Part shown: one piece after another, positions 2,975-12,345 of the stretch
How positions within the stretch are numbered: the first letter of the stretch is position 1
Layout of the letters: each line of letters starts with the position of its first letter
NCBI GenBank assembly: GCA_963675745.2
Contig: CAXXWX010000016.1
Span: 192,001-256,000, forward strand
DNA length: 64,000 bases
Reading direction: 5' to 3'
Source: Phycisphaerae bacterium
Lineage (GTDB): Bacteria; Planctomycetota; Phycisphaerae; UBA1845; Fen-1342
Position numbers and translations under genes: made by a program
The notes under the pieces: generated by a model
The model's input: the letters and a program-made list of their open reading frames with translations, nothing else
The model's database searches: none
Told to the model about the DNA's origin: nothing

Positions 2975-3885
2975 ATCGGGTAGCCGGGGAGGTTGCCCTG
3001 CCCCGGCTCCCACACCACCGTACGTACGGTTCCGTATACGGCGGTTCACGAGCAACCCGCGAGTCGCCGATGCTCGTCCATCAGGCTGATCAGCCCGAGT
3101 CCGCGCAGTTCGGAGGTCGGGACGGCGTGGTTCATGTGACGGGCCCCGGCGTTCCACCAGGGACCACGCCCATTCCACGCCGACTGCCGGGCCCGCTCAT
3201 GATCCAGGCCCCGCCGGCACAGCTCCCTGAACTGGGTCCGGTGTCGCTTCCACTGTCGCCACAGGATGCAGCGCAGTTTTCGTCGTAACCACTGGTCCAG
3301 TTGCTCGAAGCTCGCCTTGACCTCCGCGAGCTTGTAGTACGCCACCCAGCCCCGCAGTACGCGGGTCAGGGATTCGGCGACGCGGGCGAGGTTGCAACCC
3401 CGTCCGCGACGCAGCATGGGGCGGAGCTTGGCCTTCAATCGGTGCACCGATTGCGGGGCCACCTTCAGCTTCGGCTGCCGGTGCATGGTCACGGTGTAGC
3501 CCAGGAACTTGCGGGTCCAGGGCCGATCCACCGCGCTCTTCTCACGGTTCACGTGGAGACGCAGTCGCTCCGTCACGAACCGCTCCACCGAATCGAGCAC
3601 CCGTTCGCCCGCACGCCTGGACCGCACGTAGATGTTGCAGTCGTCAGCATAGCGAACGAATCGATGGCCGCGCCGTTCCAGCTCCTTGTCCAGCTCATCG
3701 AGCAGGACGTTGCTCAACAGCGGCGATAGCGGCCCACCCTGCGGTGTGCCCTCGGCCCGGGGCGAGACCAGCCCGCCCTCCATCATCCCCGCCTGTAGAT
3801 AGCGGCGGAGGAGGAGTAACACCTTCTTGTCCTTGACCCGGCGCGCCACGCGTGACATGAGCACGTCGTGGTTCACCCGGTCGAA
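2975..3885 (-). mobile_element. Group IIC intron, 3' half (RT C-terminus plus domains V and VI)
   Basis: On the minus strand after the RT stop: GAACCGCCGTATACGGAACCGTACGTACGGTGGTGTGGGAG (IIC-type domain V) and a domain VI hairpin ending ...CTACCCGAT at 2975. Confidence 0.9.
3046..3885 (-). pseudogene. ltrA: Group II intron reverse transcriptase/maturase, C-terminal half (class C type, no endonuclease domain)
   Basis: FDRVNHD, GTPQGGPLSPLLSN, RYADD, FLGY and maturase X domain; N-terminus cut at the recombinase junction. Confidence 0.9.
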
Positions 3886-4415
3886 GGAACACACGACACA
3901 CTACCCACATCCGCGACCTTCCCGCCACCGTCACGGTCCTCCGTAAACGTCATCCGATGGAAGGTAAGGCGCTGCGCATCCATGGACATCTTCATCGAAA
4001 CGGTTGCTACCTTCTGGTGTTGGAGTTGCCGGACGGCACACGATCGCTGATCCCGGCCTGCTGGACCGATCTGGACAGAGTGTCGTCACCAACTCCTGAC
4101 GCCGAGACCCCGTCGAGCACATCACAATTGCTCGGATTGGTTCGTGACTTGCTCCAGGCCCGCAAGGTCGTGGATGCTCTGCTGCGAAGGCTGGAGGCTC
4201 AATCGCCATCAGCGAATGGCCTTTCGCAGGAGGAGCGCCGCGATGCAATACCAACTGGAGTTCTGGCCCACGACGGAGGTGGTTCTCCACAAGCACGAGC
4301 CATGGGAGAACTTGGGCATCAACGAGCAAGCCGAGCGAATCGCCCTGTTGGCGCGCTTGATCGCAAAGGCCGTATGTCCGGAGCGGGACGACGCGACGCA
4401 GGAGAGCAGCCATGA
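3886..4415 (+). CDS. DUF5372/Y4bD-like accessory protein; 5' end split by integration (internal ATG at 3957)
   Basis: TVTVLRKRHPMEG...LPDGTRSLIPACWTDL resembles the HPxxG...DG...PxxWTD pattern (recalled, not searched); frame is open back to the junction; its TGA overlaps the recombinase ATG (ATGA). Confidence 0.6.
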
Positions 4416-4422
4416 GCAGTAA
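4243..4422 (+). CDS. Small hypothetical protein of the recombinase element (59 aa)
   Basis: Strong RBS AGGAGGAG at 4228-4235 before ATG 4243; MQYQLEFWP...WENLGINEQAERIALLARLIAKAV; overlaps recombinase start. Confidence 0.6.
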   Translation: MQYQLEFWPTTEVVLHKHEPWENLGINEQAERIALLARLIAKAVCPERDDATQESSHEQ

Positions 4423-6634
4423 CGAGAAGATCAAACCGACTCACTTGGATCGCAACGCCTACGTGTACGTGCGTCAGTCCACGGCCACGCAAGTTCAACA
4501 CAACCGCGAGTCTACCCGCCGACAGTACAAGTTGGTGGATCGCGCCATCTCTTTGGGATGGCCGAAGGAGCGAGTCAAAGTCATTGACGAGGACCTGGCC
4601 CGCTCGGGCGCCGGCAACGTGGAACGCGACGGGTTCACCCGAATGACGGCCGAGGCGGCCCTGGGGCAGGTCGGGCTGATCCTCTCGATCGAAGTCTCAC
4701 GCGTCGCGCGCAACAATGCCGACTGGTATCGGCTGCTGGATCTGTGCGGCGTGACCGACACGCTGATCGGCGACGAAGACGGTCTGTACCACGCCGGCCT
4801 GTTCAACGATCGACTGCTCCTTGGACTGAAGGGCACGATGGCGGAAGCCGAACTGCACGTCATTCGGGCCCGGCTGGATGGTGGTATCCGCAACAAGGCT
4901 GCACGCGGCGAGTTGCGTCGCGGGCTTCCGGTCGGCTTTGTCTGGGGCGAAGACGACGGCGAAGTGCTTTTTCATCCCGACCAAGCCGTCACGGGCGCGA
5001 TCCGGGCCGTCTTTGACAAGTTTGCTGAAGTCGGGTCGGCCCGACAGGTCTGGCTCTGGTTCCGAGGTGAAGGGCTCCATTTTCCGCTACAGGCGAACGG
5101 TCTGCGCGAGATCCGCTGGGTGACGCCGACCTACACCGCCATTCACAACATCCTGACCAACCCGGTCTATGCAGGCGCTTACACGTATGGTAAGACTCGC
5201 CAGGAACGATATGTGGACAAAAGCGGTCGGCTCAGGAAGCGGCTGCGCCGCTTGCCGCAATCCGAGTGGGCCGTGCTGATCCAGGATCACCACGAAGGCT
5301 TCGTTGACTGGAACACCTATGAGATGAACCAGGCCCGCCTCAAGCAGAACACCCGCCCGCGTCCTCATCAGGCTGGCGGCGCGGTCCGTGAAGGCACGGC
5401 ACTGCTGCAAGGCATCGCGACCTGCGCCGCCTGTGGACGCCGCCTGAATGTTTACTACCAGGGCCGCAACGCCACGCCCGGCTACTACTGTCCCAGCAGC
5501 AACATCGCCAACGGCAGGGGACGCTGGTGCATGCGCGTCGGCGGAGCGCGGATCGACAAGGCGGTCAGCGCTGCCTTCCTGGAAGCGGTCGCTCCGGCGG
5601 GCATGCGGGCCGCGCTGCAAGCCGAAGAGCTGATCGACGCCGAATACGACAGTGCAGTAGCGCAATGGCGTCTGCAGGTCGAGCAAGCCCATTACCAAGC
5701 CGAGCGGGCTGAGCGTCGTTACCGATCAGTGGAGCCGGAGAACCGCCTGGTGGCTCGAACCCTGGAAGCCGAGTGGAACAAGCGGCTCGACGAACTGACC
5801 ACCGCCGAGGCCGAACTGGCGCGCCGAGAGCATCAACGTCCCGAACGTCTGACTGACCGGCAACGTGAGCGCATTCATCGACTTGGCGCAGACCTGAATC
5901 GCGTATGGGAAGCGTCCACAACGACGGACCGCGATCGCAAGGAGCTACTGCGATCCATGCTCGAGGAAGTCAACATCGCCGTGAACCGCACTGATGCCCA
6001 GGCGCACGTAACGCTCCGTTGGCGTGGCGGGCTGTTCACCGAGATCGATGTGCCGCTCTGGCATCCCAAGGAGACGGTCGTCCGCACTGATGAAGATACC
6101 GTGGATCTCCTGCGGCGACTGGCCGAGCACCATCCCGACGCGATGATCGCCGGTATCCTCAACCGCCAAGGGCGGAAGACCGTCCGCGGCCTGCGCTTCA
6201 GCGCCAACCGTGTCAGCAGCCTGCGGCGAAGTTGGAAGATCCCACGCTACCAGCCGCCAGATACTCCTCCCGAGGGCGAGTTGGTTACCGTGGAGAGAGC
6301 GGCGAAGATCCTCGGTACCGCACCTTCGACCGTACATCGCTGGATCAACGATGGGTTCATCGCCGGCCAGCAGGTGACTCCCGGCGCGCCCTGGCAAATT
6401 CGCGTTGCCGACGACTGGAAGGAACGCTTTGTCGAAGAGCCGCCGCCGGGCTATGTGGCGATGCAGGTCGCAACCCGAATCCTCGGCGTCTCGCGCCAGA
6501 CCGTCTTGCAACGTGTAAAGCGCGGCGAGCTGCAGGCGGTGCATGTGTGCCGCGGCAGGCGCAAAGGCCTTCGTATCAGAGTGTTAGATAATCAGCCGGG
6601 TCTCTTCGACGCGAATCAAAAAGCAGGGGTGTAG
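4412..6634 (+). CDS. Large serine recombinase (resolvase, recombinase and zinc-ribbon domains plus two C-terminal HTHs)
   Basis: YVRQST catalytic Ser, SRVARN, CAACG...YYC...C zinc ribbon, coiled coil, HTHs AAKILGTAPSTVHRWI and ATRILGVSRQTVLQRVKRGEL. Confidence 0.95.
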   Translation: MSSNEKIKPTHLDRNAYVYVRQSTATQVQHNRESTRRQYKLVDRAISLGWPKERVKVIDEDLARSGAGNVERDGFTRMTAEAALGQVGLILSIEVSRVARNNADWYRLLDLCGVTDTLIGDEDGLYHAGLFNDRLLLGLKGTMAEAELHVIRARLDGGIRNKAARGELRRGLPVGFVWGEDDGEVLFHPDQAVTGAIRAVFDKFAEVGSARQVWLWFRGEGLHFPLQANGLREIRWVTPTYTAIHNILTNPVYAGAYTYGKTRQERYVDKSGRLRKRLRRLPQSEWAVLIQDHHEGFVDWNTYEMNQARLKQNTRPRPHQAGGAVREGTALLQGIATCAACGRRLNVYYQGRNATPGYYCPSSNIANGRGRWCMRVGGARIDKAVSAAFLEAVAPAGMRAALQAEELIDAEYDSAVAQWRLQVEQAHYQAERAERRYRSVEPENRLVARTLEAEWNKRLDELTTAEAELARREHQRPERLTDRQRERIHRLGADLNRVWEASTTTDRDRKELLRSMLEEVNIAVNRTDAQAHVTLRWRGGLFTEIDVPLWHPKETVVRTDEDTVDLLRRLAEHHPDAMIAGILNRQGRKTVRGLRFSANRVSSLRRSWKIPRYQPPDTPPEGELVTVERAAKILGTAPSTVHRWINDGFIAGQQVTPGAPWQIRVADDWKERFVEEPPPGYVAMQVATRILGVSRQTVLQRVKRGELQAVHVCRGRRKGLRIRVLDNQPGLFDANQKAGV

Positions 6635-6651
6635 TATGATGATGTCTCCAA

Positions 6652-7318
6652 GAACCCACGGATGTCGACGTCGAGCACCCAGTTCACCTTCCTCGTCAGC
6701 AGTCCGGTGTACAGGGCGTCCAGCGCGTTGTGCTGGCTGCGCCCCGGCCGGAAGCCGTACGAGAAGCCGAGGAAGTCAGTTTCGTAGATGGCGTTCAACA
6801 CCTCGACCGTGGCCCGGTTGTAAACTGGACGAGCTTGTCTTCCAGCACGGGCACACCGAGCGGCCTTTGCCGCCCGTCGGCTTTGGCGATGTACACCCTA
6901 CGAACCGGCTTGGCTCGGTACGCTCCGCGTTTGAGCCGCGCGGAAAGGTCGCGGCGCTGCCACCGATTCAAAACCCGCCACGGAGGCGCCTCCCGGGGCG
7001 ACCACTGCGGAGATCACATCCCTGGAGGCGTCGGAGGTTCTCCTCCAGCGCCTCGCCGTAGGCTTTCCACGTCTGCCCGTCTACACCCGGCGCGGCATCC
7101 CGCTTGAGGCGGAAGTACGCCTCCCGCAGCGTGTCCAGGTTGTAAACGTGGTGCGCTTTCCGGCATTTCGGCGGCGTGCCCAAGACGCTGGTGTCGACAA
7201 CCTCAAGGCTGCGGTCATCAAGGCCGACTGGTTCGACCCGGATCTCAAGGAGCGCGGTGAACCGCATCTTCCTATCACTTCTTGCCGCATGGCGTATCCG
7301 CTCCAACGCACTGGGCAG
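6652..7318 (-). pseudogene. ltrA: Group II intron RT, N-terminal half, with several insertions
   Basis: [71 protein letters not shown]. Confidence 0.85.
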
Positions 7319-7581
7319 GTCACTGGAGCGGCGGTAGGTGCATCCCCTTGGCTGTGTCCGCGGTTTCCCGCTCACACGGTACGCATCTTCGACCGGCGTG
7401 CCCGTGTAGGGTTCGCCATATCCGTCTCCTTCGCCCGGCACGGTGTCCGGGACCTGTTTTGCTGGCGCGGATTCCCTTTGGCCAAGCCCAATTCGAGTTC
7501 ATGGATGACCATCCGATCATCCGGAGTCTGGGCGACTACGAACAGTTCGTCCAAACCGCTTTTCGGGAGACAAAGCTATGA
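6955..7581 (+). pseudogene. istA: IS21-family IstA fragments interleaved with intron sequence
   Basis: [11 protein letters not shown] (6955-7034), AFRHFGGVPKTLV/DNLKAAVIKADWFDPDL (7154-7246), HTVRIFD (about 7374-7395), FMDDHPIIRSLGDY* (to 7581). Confidence 0.65.
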
Positions 7582-8746
7582 TGGTAGAAACACTTCGAGC
7601 CCCTGGCGTCCAAATCGTGGTCGCCGATCCCCTTGAGGGGGAACCAGCGTACCCAGGTTCCCCCTCAAACTCCCCCTCCTTCCTTCATTCCCCTCCGGCG
7701 GGAAGGAGGTGGCGTCTATGAATGAAGCCATGCAGACAGCTTTGAAGAAGTTGCGGCTTTCCGGGATGGCGCAGTCGTTGGAGGTGCGTTTGCAGGAAGC
7801 GTCCAAGCCACGGACTCAACCACGCGGAGTTCTTGGAGCTGATTCTCCAGGATGAGTTGGCCATCCGCGCCGAGCGGCAGATGAACCGGCGGGTCAAGGC
7901 CGCCGCCTTCCGCGAACTCAAGCCGCTCGATCAATTCGACTTCGCGTTCAATCCTTCGATCAAGAAGAAACAAGTGTACGACCTGGCCACCTGCCGGTTC
8001 ATCCGCGAAGCGCGGGACTGCCTCCTGCTCGGTCCTCCGGGCACGGGCAAGAGCTTTTTGGTCCAAGCCCTGGGCTATCAGGCCATCAAGGCGGGATTCA
8101 CGGTGCTGTATCGCTCGATCTTCGATCTGGTGCGCGACTTCCTGCACGACGATGCCTTCGCCGGCATCGACCGAGTGCTAACCAGATACCTCAAACCGGA
8201 CTTAGTCATCATCGACGATTTTGGGATGAAGCAACTGCCGAAGCGCTCGGGGGAGTATCTGTTTGAGATCATCATGCGGCGCTACGAGACCCGCTCTACG
8301 ATCATGACCTCGAACCGGCCGCTGGAGGATTGGGGCAAGGTCATCGGCGACGTCCCGGCCGCTACTGCCATCCTGGATCGCTTCCTGCACCATGCCGAGG
8401 TCATCACCATCACGGGCAAGAGCTACGGCTGCGCAAACCAAGCCCGTGATAGCAAGAGCCCCAACGACCCGACCGACAACATGACGAGAAGAAGGGCAAG
8501 GTTGCGGCTCCCTTGCCGGACCCAGTGAGGACGGTATAGAAACATCAACAAAAGTGCTGGGTTTGAGGGCGCTCGCCTGGACTTCTCAGGCGCCTCCCGT
8601 ACTACGAGCGGCGGTAGGTGCATCCCCTTGGCTGTGTCCGACGGTTTCCCTCTGCGTGCCCGTGTAGGGTTCGCCATATCCGTCTCCATCGCCCGGCACG
8701 GTGTCCGGTCCTGTTTTGCTGGCGCGGATTCCCTTTGGCCAAGCCC
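7326..8746. repeat. Imperfect direct repeat of about 140-160 bp of intron sequence (7326-7489 and 8606-8746) flanking istB
   Basis: GAGCGGCGGTAGGTGCATCCCCTTGGCTGTGTCCG...GGATTCCCTTTGGCCAAGCCC occurs twice. Confidence 0.85.
7718..8528 (+). pseudogene. istB: IS21-family helper ATPase IstB, frameshifted
   Basis: RBS GGAGG, MNEAMQTALKKLRLSGM, extra base near 7805, GPPGTGKS, IIDDFG, TSNRP, ILDRFLHHA; apparent 1-base loss in the GKSYRL motif. Confidence 0.88.
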
Positions 8747-9185
8747 CTTCCCTCCGCCCCCTCCGCACGGGGACTTCGCAGGTCTACGGGCCTGTCCGAC
8801 TTCTCGCGTCCGTTCATCATCGGCGTGTGGACTTCCCCACGGCCCGCAGCACCATCAGTTGCGGGCGGACACGAGATCTCCCGGTTCTCGCGCGAGGTGT
8901 TTCCGCACATGCACGGGGTCTCAGACCGCGCGGGGTCCCACCGCATCTCGCGATATCGATGCGTCGGATGTAGCCTTCCGCCTACCTCCACGGCGTCGGC
9001 ACCCCAAAGGGAGTTACTTTCGCGGCTCAGTACCCGGCCTGCACGTACCCCTGTCAACGCTTCGCCCCTGCCCTCGCGGGCAACGACGCATGACTCGGGG
9101 CCGCTGTGGGCCGCTAACCCTTCAACGTATGACTCCTTCATTCACTACACCTCGCCGGTTTATCCCGGCGCACGGAGGAACCAAC

Positions 9186-10916: not shown

Positions 10917-12345
10917 GAGGTATTGTCAAATATCGTTGATGGGCCGGCTTTCAGGCGGCGGCCTTCTCGGGTTTTTCTCCGTCGATGAACTTTGCTCCGG
11001 CGATGACTTCCGGCAGTAGCTTAGCCCCATTCAGCAGTCGCCAGCGTCGGGCGGCCGACTCGCAGAGCTTGAAGACCATCGCCAGGCACGCCACGCGGCT
11101 GCCGTTACCCTTCGTCCGCCGATGACGCAGTCGCACCGTCGCAAACGTACTTTCGATCGGGTTCGTCGTACGCAAGTGCAGCCAGTGCTCGGCCGGGAAG
11201 TCATAGAACGTCAACAACTCGACCCGGTCCTTCTGTAAGCACTCGACCGCGCCTGGGTACTTCGCGCTGTAGGCTGCAGCAAAGTGGTCGAACGCCTGCT
11301 CGGCATCCGCACGCGTCGACGCCATCCAGATCTGGTGCAGCTTCTCCTTCGCCCCGGACTGCACCTTCTTGGCCATCTTGTCCAGCACGTTGGCTGTCTT
11401 GTGCACCCAGCAACGCTGAGCCCGCGTGGTGGGCCACACTTGCGGCAACGCCTTCCAGAAGCCCAGGGCCCCGTCCGCCGTCGCCACCTTTGGGTCGAGC
11501 GTCAAGCCCCGTTGCTTGCAATCCAAGAGCAAGGTGTACCACGATTGCTCACTCTCACGATGCCCGTCGGCCACCGCAATCAGCTCCTTCTTGCCCTCGG
11601 CCGTGGCGCCCATCAAGACCAGAATGCACTGGCGATCCTCCTCCAACCGGACATTGAAGTGGATGCCGTCAGCCCACAGATACACGTACTGTTTGCCTTC
11701 CAGCGTGCGGTGGCTCCAGGACTTGTGCTCGTCCTGCCAGGCCGTCACTAGCCGCGTGATCGTGGTGGCACTCAACCCCGCCACCTGGGGACCGACCAGA
11801 GCCTGCAAGGCCTCGGCGAAGTCGCCCGTGCTCACGCCCTTGAGGTACAACCACGGGATCAGCTCCTCGATGGCCTTCGTCTTCCGCAGGTAGGGAGGCA
11901 GGATCTTCGAGCTGAACCGGGTGATCGGCTGACCTGCCGCGTCGATCGTCTGCCCCTCTTCGTCAATTCCGGCAACGCGTCGGTCCAGCACCCGTGGCTG
12001 CGTGACCGCCACCGGTCCAACTCCAGTGACCAGTCTGCGAGTCGGGTGATGGCCGTTGCGGACCACCTGTCGGCGGCCCTGCTCGTCAGTCAGACTCGCG
12101 TACCGCTCAGTCCAGTCGGCAACCTCCGCCTCAATTGCCTGTCCCAACAGACGTTGTGCCCCGTTCCGTAGGATTTCGGTCAACACATCCCGTCCCGGGA
12201 CTGGAATCGTCGTCGTAGCTTCGCTATTCTCCAACACCGGCGTACTCCTCTGCCCAACGTGGGCGGCTCGGAACCTTCGTTTTCAGATCCCGAGAGTACG
12301 CCGCCTTTTTTCGTCCCGCCATCAACGAAATTCGGTTATACCTCC
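10916..12345 (-). mobile_element. IS256-family insertion sequence
   Basis: Imperfect 27-bp terminal IRs GGAGGTATTGTCAAATATCGTTGATGG / GGAGGTATAACCGAATTTCGTTGATGG; no target duplication visible. Confidence 0.92.
10951..12237 (-). CDS. IS256-family (Mutator) transposase
   Basis: YLKGVSTGDF, YLWADG, ADGALGF, QRCWVHK, RTTNPIES. Confidence 0.95.
   Translation of the reverse strand: MLENSEATTTIPVPGRDVLTEILRNGAQRLLGQAIEAEVADWTERYASLTDEQGRRQVVRNGHHPTRRLVTGVGPVAVTQPRVLDRRVAGIDEEGQTIDAAGQPITRFSSKILPPYLRKTKAIEELIPWLYLKGVSTGDFAEALQALVGPQVAGLSATTITRLVTAWQDEHKSWSHRTLEGKQYVYLWADGIHFNVRLEEDRQCILVLMGATAEGKKELIAVADGHRESEQSWYTLLLDCKQRGLTLDPKVATADGALGFWKALPQVWPTTRAQRCWVHKTANVLDKMAKKVQSGAKEKLHQIWMASTRADAEQAFDHFAAAYSAKYPGAVECLQKDRVELLTFYDFPAEHWLHLRTTNPIESTFATVRLRHRRTKGNGSRVACLAMVFKLCESAARRWRLLNGAKLLPEVIAGAKFIDGEKPEKAAA

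Follow-up and report, generated by a model that had tools for sequence, protein, structure and literature searches.

The window analysed here, a 64,000-nucleotide stretch of the genome of a Phycisphaerae bacterium (contig CAXXWX010000016.1, positions 192,001 to 256,000 of the forward strand), carries at positions 3886-6651 a complete mobile element of 2,766 bp plus an AA core, and we find that this is very probably a minimal element that moves by conservative site-specific recombination through its own large serine recombinase (LSR), with the reverse transcriptase (RT) genes of group II introns as its target. Three overlapping frames that run in the same direction on the + strand fill it, namely the open reading frames ORF1 and ORF2 and the gene of a 740-aa recombinase. 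An earlier interpretation of this DNA from its letters alone, called the sequence-only reading below, had proposed such an element, and its two junctions lie exactly where they had been placed.

The comparison covers 91 sources, the window and 90 related loci, 10 of the latter from species genomes and 80 from metagenomes. The genome loci are the 10 recombinase loci yielded by a scan of one genome per species, and come from Competibacteraceae, Syntrophobacteria, a deltaproteobacterial metagenome-assembled genome (MAG), Rhizobium, Mesorhizobium and Phycisphaerales; the metagenome loci are the best 80 of at least 581 relatives (62-81% identity), a choice that biases the sample with respect to identity. 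Junctions were placed with the end motifs GGAA-N8-ACACTACCC (left) and TATGA-N7-TCC-AA (right), the right end being searched only at loci whose recombinase match extends to residue 725. Flanks were translated on the strand opposite the element in the frame dictated by the junction, and left flanks of 6 aa or more were counted as readable.

At the left junction, ...CCGGTCG-AA, with the AA crossover core at 3884-3885 of the + strand, is followed by GGAACACACGACACACTAC (3886-3904), and at the right junction GTAGTATGATGATGTCTCC (6631-6649) is followed by AA (6650-6651) and then by GAACCCACGGAT. The left attachment (att) arm spans 3886-3906 on the + strand, and its motif marks the left end in 83 of the 91 sources, ~450-530 nt upstream of the recombinase start, as well as in their consensus; the right arm (6622-6651, + strand), which holds a G-rich run resembling a ribosome-binding site (RBS; 6626-6629), an ATG (6636-6638) and the AA core, could be located at 64 sources. 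The two 19-nt arms match as inverted repeats at 11 of 19 positions (binomial P for 11 or more of 19, 0.0023), confirming the symmetry around AA described in the sequence-only reading, and the consensus of relatives keeps these imperfect inverted arms and the central AA across the family. In 74 distinct left flanks, AA is near-invariant as the final two flank bases. The genome itself supplies the unoccupied state: window 2975-3885 is 100% identical to three intact group II introns elsewhere in the assembly, and these hold the empty site ...GGTCG-AA-GAACTTCTCC..., encoding ...DLEKFFDRVNH.... One of them, L002, reads ...GGTCG-AA-GAACTT... and is intact throughout, with domains D1-D4, a 467-aa RT and domains V-VI. 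Filled and empty sites have only the AA core in common, with no duplication beyond it, so that the ends display the imperfect inverted repeats, the 2-bp core and the exchange without target duplication by which LSR att sites are recognized.

Outside the element, the minus strand translates as ...NWVLDVDIRGF in the right flank and FDRVNHDVLM... in the left, and this arrangement recurs across the family. The motif F[DENG]xxx[HQRKD] opens 76 of the 80 readable left flanks (68 in the strict form FDxxx[HQ]), while D[ILVM]xx[FY] ends 58 of the 61 readable right flanks; both flanks are present at 55 loci spread over several RT classes, exemplified by ...DLDLEKF|FDRVNHD.LM, ...DADIRGF|FD...HEW and ...DADLSKY|FDTIPH. 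These flanks bear out the earlier claim that the element uses group II intron RT genes as its attachment site, and the check suggested with it, that the flanks of homologous recombinases should repeatedly encode RT motifs, succeeds across the genome and metagenome loci alike. Junctions are base-exact in all RT classes, the element has one and the same orientation at every locus, its genes running antisense to the RT, and in 9 of the 10 genome loci RT pieces lie on one or both sides of the recombinase and are broken at residue 187-194 of the intact RT of the window's left-hand intron, intron A (tblastn). The flank consensus shows a three-base periodicity that fits a target defined as a protein motif, because codon positions 1 and 2 are conserved and position 3 is free. 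Together these comparisons show an attB, the target-side site, of ~40-50 bp within group II intron RT genes; its centre is the TT (AA in the window's + strand) that separates the codons for ...D(I/L)xxF from those for FDxxxH of the RT. That the element inactivates the retroelement is suggested by the split RT gene.

The 740-aa protein (4412-6634, + strand; PF00239, PF07508, PF12728 and PF13408) is identified by its domains and residues as an LSR. A resolvase domain is followed by a recombinase domain, a zinc ribbon, a putative coiled coil and a C-terminal extension of ~180 aa with two HTH_17 motifs. PF00239 matches residues 16-167 with E 5e-15 and PF07508 matches with E 3.5e-19; PF13408 reaches 24.1 bits in the window protein, just below its cut-off of 25.3, and is precomputed on many relatives. 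Across seven relatives (58-88% identity), the catalytic residues R21, S23, R97 and R100 are invariant, as are the zinc-ribbon residues C338, C341, C360 and C373. The best NCBIfam match is the XisF excision recombinase, at 60.6 bits relative to a cut-off of 375, so that the two are not equivalogs. DUF4368 is absent among the seven Pfam families matched at E <= 0.01 and among the precomputed domains of the 120 listed relatives.

Several observations weigh against an element that is both mobile and specific for these genes. Four left flanks do not fit: that of L007 is RT-like without the His, L015 is a distant relative (35% identical) with a doubtful motif match, L092 has a poor motif match, and L096 has a true left end beside a non-RT flank. 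Nor do three right flanks, those of L071 (an RT, with C replacing F), L083 (a true end, non-RT) and L088 (dehydrogenase-like). The element is single-copy in its genome while three intact target sites stand empty. The attP site of an excised circle, whose junction the sequence-only reading had reconstructed and proposed to look for, was detected nowhere: no attP joint and no read returning from one end to the other occurs in the Logan contigs of four public runs that hold the stretch, contigs of a kind that drops rare forms; the strict attP pattern is absent from 99 compared sequences; and no joint was found in viral contigs or in 401 genomes of the phylum. Because contigs and assemblies drop rare circles, we do not take these empty searches as an argument against excision. 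A looser attP pattern matched attL sites and was discarded.

At the locus L088 (2998-3100), an RT gene lies on the left and a short-chain-dehydrogenase-like gene (...LVNNVGI...GDADWLRF) on the right, and the DNA past the core (GAAGCGCAGCCAGTCCGCGTC) is similar to the RT target consensus; this locus possibly records an off-target event at a pseudo-site, followed by rearrangement.

ORF2 (4243-4422, + strand), of 59 aa, is a candidate recombination directionality factor (RDF), with a homologous open frame at 75 of 79 loci. RDFs of LSRs form a functional class that shares no common fold, and are recognized by their binding to the integrase at DBD2 and the coiled-coil hinge. Its stop lies 8 nt within the recombinase gene, and its homologues are 50-60 aa long from a conserved Met and share the pattern M.QL.L.F...P.P...LWE.L....Q...VIE.LARL (alignment of 33 sequences). 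Neither Pfam nor NCBIfam returns a match for it, and an AlphaFold2 model consists of a single helix at residues 26-44. When modelled with the recombinase, the pair obtains a complex score of 0.68 (runs 0.67, 0.74 and 0.68), the best of three controls scoring 0.00; the mark used for this score is reached by 116 of 157 solved complexes and by 2 of 215 mismatched pairs. No fewer than 94% of contacts are common to the runs, and the pLDDT (predicted local distance difference test) of the partner is at least 60. In the model ORF2 contacts recombinase residues 388-411, 484-516 and 537-543, immediately past the zinc ribbon and at the point of the chain's return; the first two of these segments flank the zinc ribbon like the outgoing and returning strands of a coiled coil. 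ORF2 is thus predicted to bind the base of the recombinase coiled coil, as excision factors do, and we infer that it would serve as the excision (directionality) factor. A point to be set against this is that the score may owe something to likeness with solved integrase-RDF structures, and custom alignments were used; what it indicates is a similar mode of binding rather than a function. The SPbeta RDF, of 58 aa, packs in the same integrase region, the coiled-coil base, as described in PMC11722253.

ORF1 has a more unusual structure. Its body, which is DUF5372-like (PF17342), occupies 3888-4415 on the + strand and is conserved by tblastn in 78 of 78 loci, over its first 80-95 residues; the frame is open from 3888, and its stop TGA (4413-4415) overlaps the ATG of the recombinase, an ATGA being present at the recombinase start in 74 of the 78 loci. 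In all loci read, the frame is open from the element's first bases. When the ends are joined as by excision, the ATG of the right end is in frame with ORF1 with no intervening stop in 56 of the 59 two-ended loci, and a GTG takes its place in the other three. This ATG is preceded at a distance of 7-12 nt by a G-rich run (GGGG, GGGGG or AGGAG) and at 2-20 nt by the recombinase stop. This arrangement leads us to infer that ORF1 would be complete only in the excised circle, the right end supplying its RBS, ATG and six opening codons and the left end its body; in the integrated state, the same ATG opens a 141-aa frame into the antisense RT (6636-7061). The minimal three-gene content claimed by the sequence-only reading thus stands in its three frames, with the amendment that the first gene is apparently whole only across the circle junction.

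It is possible, if somewhat unlikely, that ORF1 is instead an ordinary gene that uses an internal start when integrated, with the right-end ATG and G-run kept only as a binding arm. Most of what speaks against a circle-only gene speaks for this alternative: some in-frame ATG, GTG or TTG precedes the LPDG core of ORF1 in 71 of 75 loci, so that a shortened ORF1 is possible in the integrated state; an ATG at 3957 lies within the ORF1 of the window; the ATG of the right end sits inside the recombinase-binding arm and could be conserved for that alone; and the Atlas DUF5372 clusters encode proteins of 103-130 aa, so that gene callers evidently find starts. The earliest in-frame ATG, GTG or TTG falls at codon 10 (one locus) or codon 14 (28 loci) among these 75, and codon 14, where those 28 have GTG or TTG, is also where the Pfam DUF5372 profile begins to align. 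Yet no internal start position is conserved. There is no in-frame ATG before the core in 38 of the 75 loci, the position of the window's methionine is leucine or phenylalanine in most loci, and valine 14 is not a conserved start because its codon varies (of 64 loci, 26 have GTC, 24 GTG and 9 GTA). The codon of proline 11 is CCN with a free third base, which shows that coding extends upstream of this position. The upstream stretch as a whole varies in the manner of coding sequence, with entropies at the three codon positions of 0.82, 0.74 and 1.51 for codons 7-22, which lie upstream of nearly all internal starts, and 0.84, 0.55 and 1.56 for codons 23-59. The frame open from the element's first base, the in-frame ATG or GTG without a stop before the joint in all two-ended loci and the recombinase stop just upstream of the right-end ATG likewise argue against an ordinary gene.

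A circle-only ORF1 also has to be set beside the annotation of its neighbours and its family. In two plasmids the Prokaryotic Genome Annotation Pipeline (PGAP) calls ORF2 and not ORF1, which speaks for a split ORF1. Between offset 330 and the recombinase ATG, stops are absent from the ORF1 frame at 50 of 71 loci, from the ORF2 frame at 65 and from the third frame at one, and the poorly conserved tail of ORF1 overlaps ORF2 in another frame. PF17342 (DUF5372) scores 13.7 bits (E 0.066) on the window ORF1, 13.9 on L009 and 26.9 (E 4.9e-06) on L040, with a cut-off of 25, so that the window protein falls below it; the DUF5372 model run against its own genome at E <= 0.01 gives no match, but its controls were silent too and it carries little weight. 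Both results, and a promoter scan of 3700-6900 that returned one weak minus-strand site and nothing useful, count against the accessory-gene part of the interpretation. Conversely, 28 of the 30 Atlas feature hits of ORF1 are DUF5372 clusters, with a best score of 0.95, and a family-level link of ORF1 to DUF5372 is likely. NCBIfam has no match for ORF1. In its model (pLDDT 77), residues 14-60 form a small beta-barrel and residues 85-105 a helix; the fold as a clue to function was rejected, its generic Tudor/SH3/KOW likeness (Foldseek E ~0.02, VIA Z up to 6.2) being below a specific match.

In the mechanism that we favour, the LSR would excise the element as a circle that carries attP, and the circle would re-insert wherever the DNA of an RT gene agrees with a degenerate, wobble-tolerant consensus, splitting that gene reversibly and without a scar; selfish introns would thereby offer a harmless, multi-copy and horizontally mobile landing pad. 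ORF2 would dock at the coiled-coil base of the recombinase and act as its excision factor. ORF1 would report the excised state, because it is complete only in the circle, and may favour integration either as a protein or via translation through the ORF2 start to the ATGA overlap; such a shift towards integration, whether by ORF1 or by its translation, is speculative. We only tentatively put forward, as a doubtful extension of this scheme, a topological sensor that sets the direction of recombination. In the integrated state only the RDF-like ORF2 and the recombinase would be made, favouring excision. In the circle the right-end RBS and ATG would be joined to the ORF1 body, ORF1 would be read through, and ribosomes would cross the ORF2 start to reach the ATGA; recombinase without RDF, or an anti-RDF protein, would then lead to integration into the next RT gene.

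The two flanks of the window copy differ in origin. On the left, domains V-VI, the 3' end of group II intron A (2975-3046, - strand; Rfam RF00029, 44.6 bits, E 2.1e-06, a match also found in L002), are followed by the C-terminal part of the intron-A RT/maturase gene (3046-3885, - strand), the attB half, whose ORF starts exactly F-D-R-V-N-H and matches RVT_1 (E 3.5e-21, profile positions 79-205 of 205) and GIIM (E 3.1e-20); it is the combination of RVT_1 and GIIM with adjoining intron ribozyme domains that marks the left host gene as a group II RT/maturase. On the right, the N-terminal part of a decayed RT of a second intron, intron B (6652-7150, - strand), ends in the ...DIRGF motif at the junction and belongs to another RT class than the left flank; window 6652-7160 is present only once in the assembly and shows no similarity at the nucleotide level to the intact intron-A copies. 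By sequence, the element lies between the 3' half of intron A and a decayed 5' half of intron B. A group II ribozyme segment at 8916-9136 (- strand; RF02005, 191.6 bits, E 3.7e-57), which comprises the 5' domains D1-D4, is probably the 5' end of intron B, parted from the RT fragment by remnants like the insertion sequence (IS) IS21. Because the flanks differ in origin, a restored ...DIRGF|FD... would be a chimera of two introns; the proposal in the sequence-only reading that excision restores this motif in frame therefore holds for the flank codons and fails for a single restored native gene.

Contigs of the public runs provide a view of other copies in the sample; claims based on them apply to the covered parts, with the small-share runs X1-X19 set aside. 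Depth is ~7 for the element and ~30 for intron A, which fits one copy versus four. The loose end at 3886 runs on as intact intron A, and the loose ends at 6650 and 6653 run leftwards as intact B-type RT, so that both types of empty site exist in the sample. Relative to contigs of runs X20 and X21, the window has 8 extra bases at 6817, coinciding with the frameshift of the RT fragment, and 80 extra at 6952-7031, and because of these its intron-B copy is decayed in comparison with the sample's other copies. The window copy would thus have been rearranged after insertion, most likely by recombination between element copies in introns A and B, which would have left one copy and deleted or inverted the intervening DNA.

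A mis-assembly, rather than a real rearrangement, is an improbable cause of this mismatch of flanks. The source assembly is in 28 contigs (91% complete, 6% contamination), both flanks are repeated in the sample at the depths given above, and among the independent contigs none extends across the right junction by 31 nt or more; the chimeric flank therefore rests on the assembly, a point that we count against our interpretation. Against a mis-join, the alternative right flanks share only ~6 nt past the core, too little for an error in the assembly graph; a contig from run X20 covers 3857-6655 without any difference; and flanks of mixed class occur in the unrelated metagenome contigs L018 and L076, with a non-RT right flank in L088.

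Movement of the element between introns is most apparent in pairs of closely related copies. The recombinases of L075 and L078 are 100% identical, those of L064 and L071 99.6% and those of L011 and L012 94.2%, while the 30 flanking RT residues are only 10-13%, 13% and 10-13% identical, respectively; L010 and L019 have recombinases 99.3% identical, and flank identity over these four pairs is 10-47%. Inheritance with one intron is ruled out because near-identical recombinases sit in unrelated RT genes, and insertion, as read from these alignments, is repeated and recent. Across loci, recombinase identity is 62-88%, and in the 10 genome loci the flanking RTs are only 25-70% identical to the intact intron-A RT (tblastn).

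That the host or the intron instead keeps the element as a domesticated, reversible interruption that controls RT expression is very unlikely. Gene-interrupting elements that are excised during heterocyst or spore development provide the model for such a switch, and a precise excision that restores the reading frame, as well as XisF as the best NCBIfam match, albeit far below its cut-off, would agree with it. The element nevertheless has the pattern of a mobile one, with many contexts and RT classes and copies with different flanks; decayed copies are common, among them L014, with two stops, and a plasmid copy with a split recombinase; and the window flanks could not restore a native RT.

The remaining alternative, that a cassette entered one ancestral intron once and was carried along as the intron diversified, fits the recombinases of 99.0% identity in L009 and L010 but is most improbable in view of the L075/L078 and L064/L071 pairs, which join different RT classes and contradict mirrored recombinase and RT trees, the flanking RTs that diverge further than the recombinases, the empty sites in the same genome and the base-exact junctions in all classes. 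L009 and L010 lie on two contigs of one MAG, with RT flanks 100% and 90% identical; either the element entered two sister introns separately, or one intron was copied together with the element that it held, and the pair thus bears on a possible spread of the element by way of intron mobility.

The family is widespread. Of 8,000 scored protein clusters at 90% identity, 7,999 reach E <= 1e-20, so that it comprises at least 7,999 clusters; the best 120 are 69-100% identical and most are on contigs of 2.5-4 kb, a length to be expected because assemblers break units that lie between repeats. Relatives occur in 461 plasmid records and in none of the viral contigs searched, and copies with RT sequence on both sides are found on a Pseudomonas mandelii plasmid and on the P. 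putida TOL plasmid pWW53. The pWW53 copy (L098, NC_008275.1 73018-81197) lies beside xylS with RT halves on both sides, and its recombinase is split and annotated as two pieces; pDK1 (NC_014124.1) gives the same match. Over 3866-6656, a variant that differs from the window's element at 6-7 bases is present in runs X21, X22 and X23, from two studies, in X21 with 345 nt of different sequence to its left, and another contig, at depth 53, shares only 3866-3908 before diverging. As these contigs indicate, further family members and insertion sites exist in samples X21-X23.

The first 12 kb of the window are a cluster of mobile-element remains. A short frame at 7148-7260 resembling an IstA fragment and a 231-aa ORF at 7833-8528 resembling an IstB-type ATPase are what we take to be the IS21-like remnants nested in decayed intron B, and sequence at ~7300-7500 is repeated at ~8600-8750. 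A 428-aa ORF at 10951-12237 (- strand) is presumably a transposase of the IS256 family (Mutator type). Directly adjoining the intron-A 3' end on the left are three ORFs (239-2652, - strand) that we assume to be hypE, hypD and hypC of hydrogenase maturation (motif, e.g., MCLAVPG).

The closest known systems are serine integrases of the phage type, with their small RDFs, and the TnpX/TndX transposons of clostridia. SPbeta SprA/SprB and phiC31 Int/gp3 share the domain order of catalytic domain, recombinase domain and zinc ribbon, into which a coiled coil is inserted that is putative in the window protein, Bxb1 Int/gp47 is a further large serine integrase with a small directionality factor, and the att sites of phage-type integrases are likewise imperfect inverted repeats around a 2-bp core. 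The present family differs in having no phage, no large cargo and no relatives in viral contigs, all within 2.8 kb; in the C-terminal extension of its recombinase with the two HTH_17 motifs; in its weak sequence similarity to solved integrases (best PDB matches E 9e-07 to 6e-04, with partial cover only); and in a target that is a family of diverged genes rather than one locus. In Tn4451/Tn4453 (TnpX) and Tn5397 (TndX), a large serine recombinase is the only transposase; these small elements move by way of a circle intermediate, on which their gene expression depends. Lyras and Rood reportedly found in 2000 that the joint of the Tn4451 circle forms a promoter for tnpX, whereas the joint described here would complete a reading frame, instead of or besides forming a promoter. 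Transposons of the Tn4451/Tn5397 type use a short target consensus, in contrast to the long conserved coding motif used here. According to PMC10083194, DUF4368 is found in 63% of the multi-targeting TndX-like LSR clade; this domain was not found in the window recombinase, and the element has no cargo gene.

The fdxN element with XisF, skin and SPbeta are likewise serine recombinase elements within coding sequence whose excision restores the frame, but they interrupt host genes, whereas the gene interrupted here belongs to another mobile element, with many copies and RT classes. Elements of the IS607 family resemble the present one in being minimal and IS-like, with a serine recombinase and a helix-turn-helix (HTH) of the MerR/excisionase type. 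IS607 enzymes are small, with the HTH at the N-terminus and little target specificity; an assignment of the window protein to the IS607-type transposases was rejected, as NF033518 scores 16.2 bits relative to a cut-off of 110 and matches residues 687-718 only, the C-terminal HTH. Multi-copy, dispensable landing sites are also used by ISs that insert into repetitive extragenic palindromic (REP) sequences or into other ISs, and by R2 in ribosomal DNA; here the target is the coding motif of a retroelement's catalytic domain and the enzyme an LSR. In a literature search outside subscription journals, neither a serine recombinase element with group II intron RT genes as its target nor DUF5372 was found described. 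Serine recombinases appear in the Thiomargarita paper (PMC4853749) only in connection with xisF, and reverse transcriptase goes unmentioned in the main text and eight supplementary files of the LSR survey of Durrant et al. 2022.

What emerges is a DNA element that lives on a retroelement, in a very common family with copies on plasmids as well known as pWW53. The family would explain many RT genes of introns that appear "degenerate", as well as ~2.8-kb contigs that break at repeats. A target that is conserved as protein varies at wobble positions, so that each enzyme would have dozens of natural attB variants, a data set on the tolerance of degenerate sites that is useful for integrase design; and the possible circle-only gene beside a candidate directionality factor of 59 aa makes an old question testable in a three-gene system, namely how small serine-recombinase elements that lack phage regulation decide between excision and integration. 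If true, intact sister introns that provide RT in trans might allow the element to be carried along, and this family of hyperparasites would influence both the load of group II introns and their decay across bacteria.

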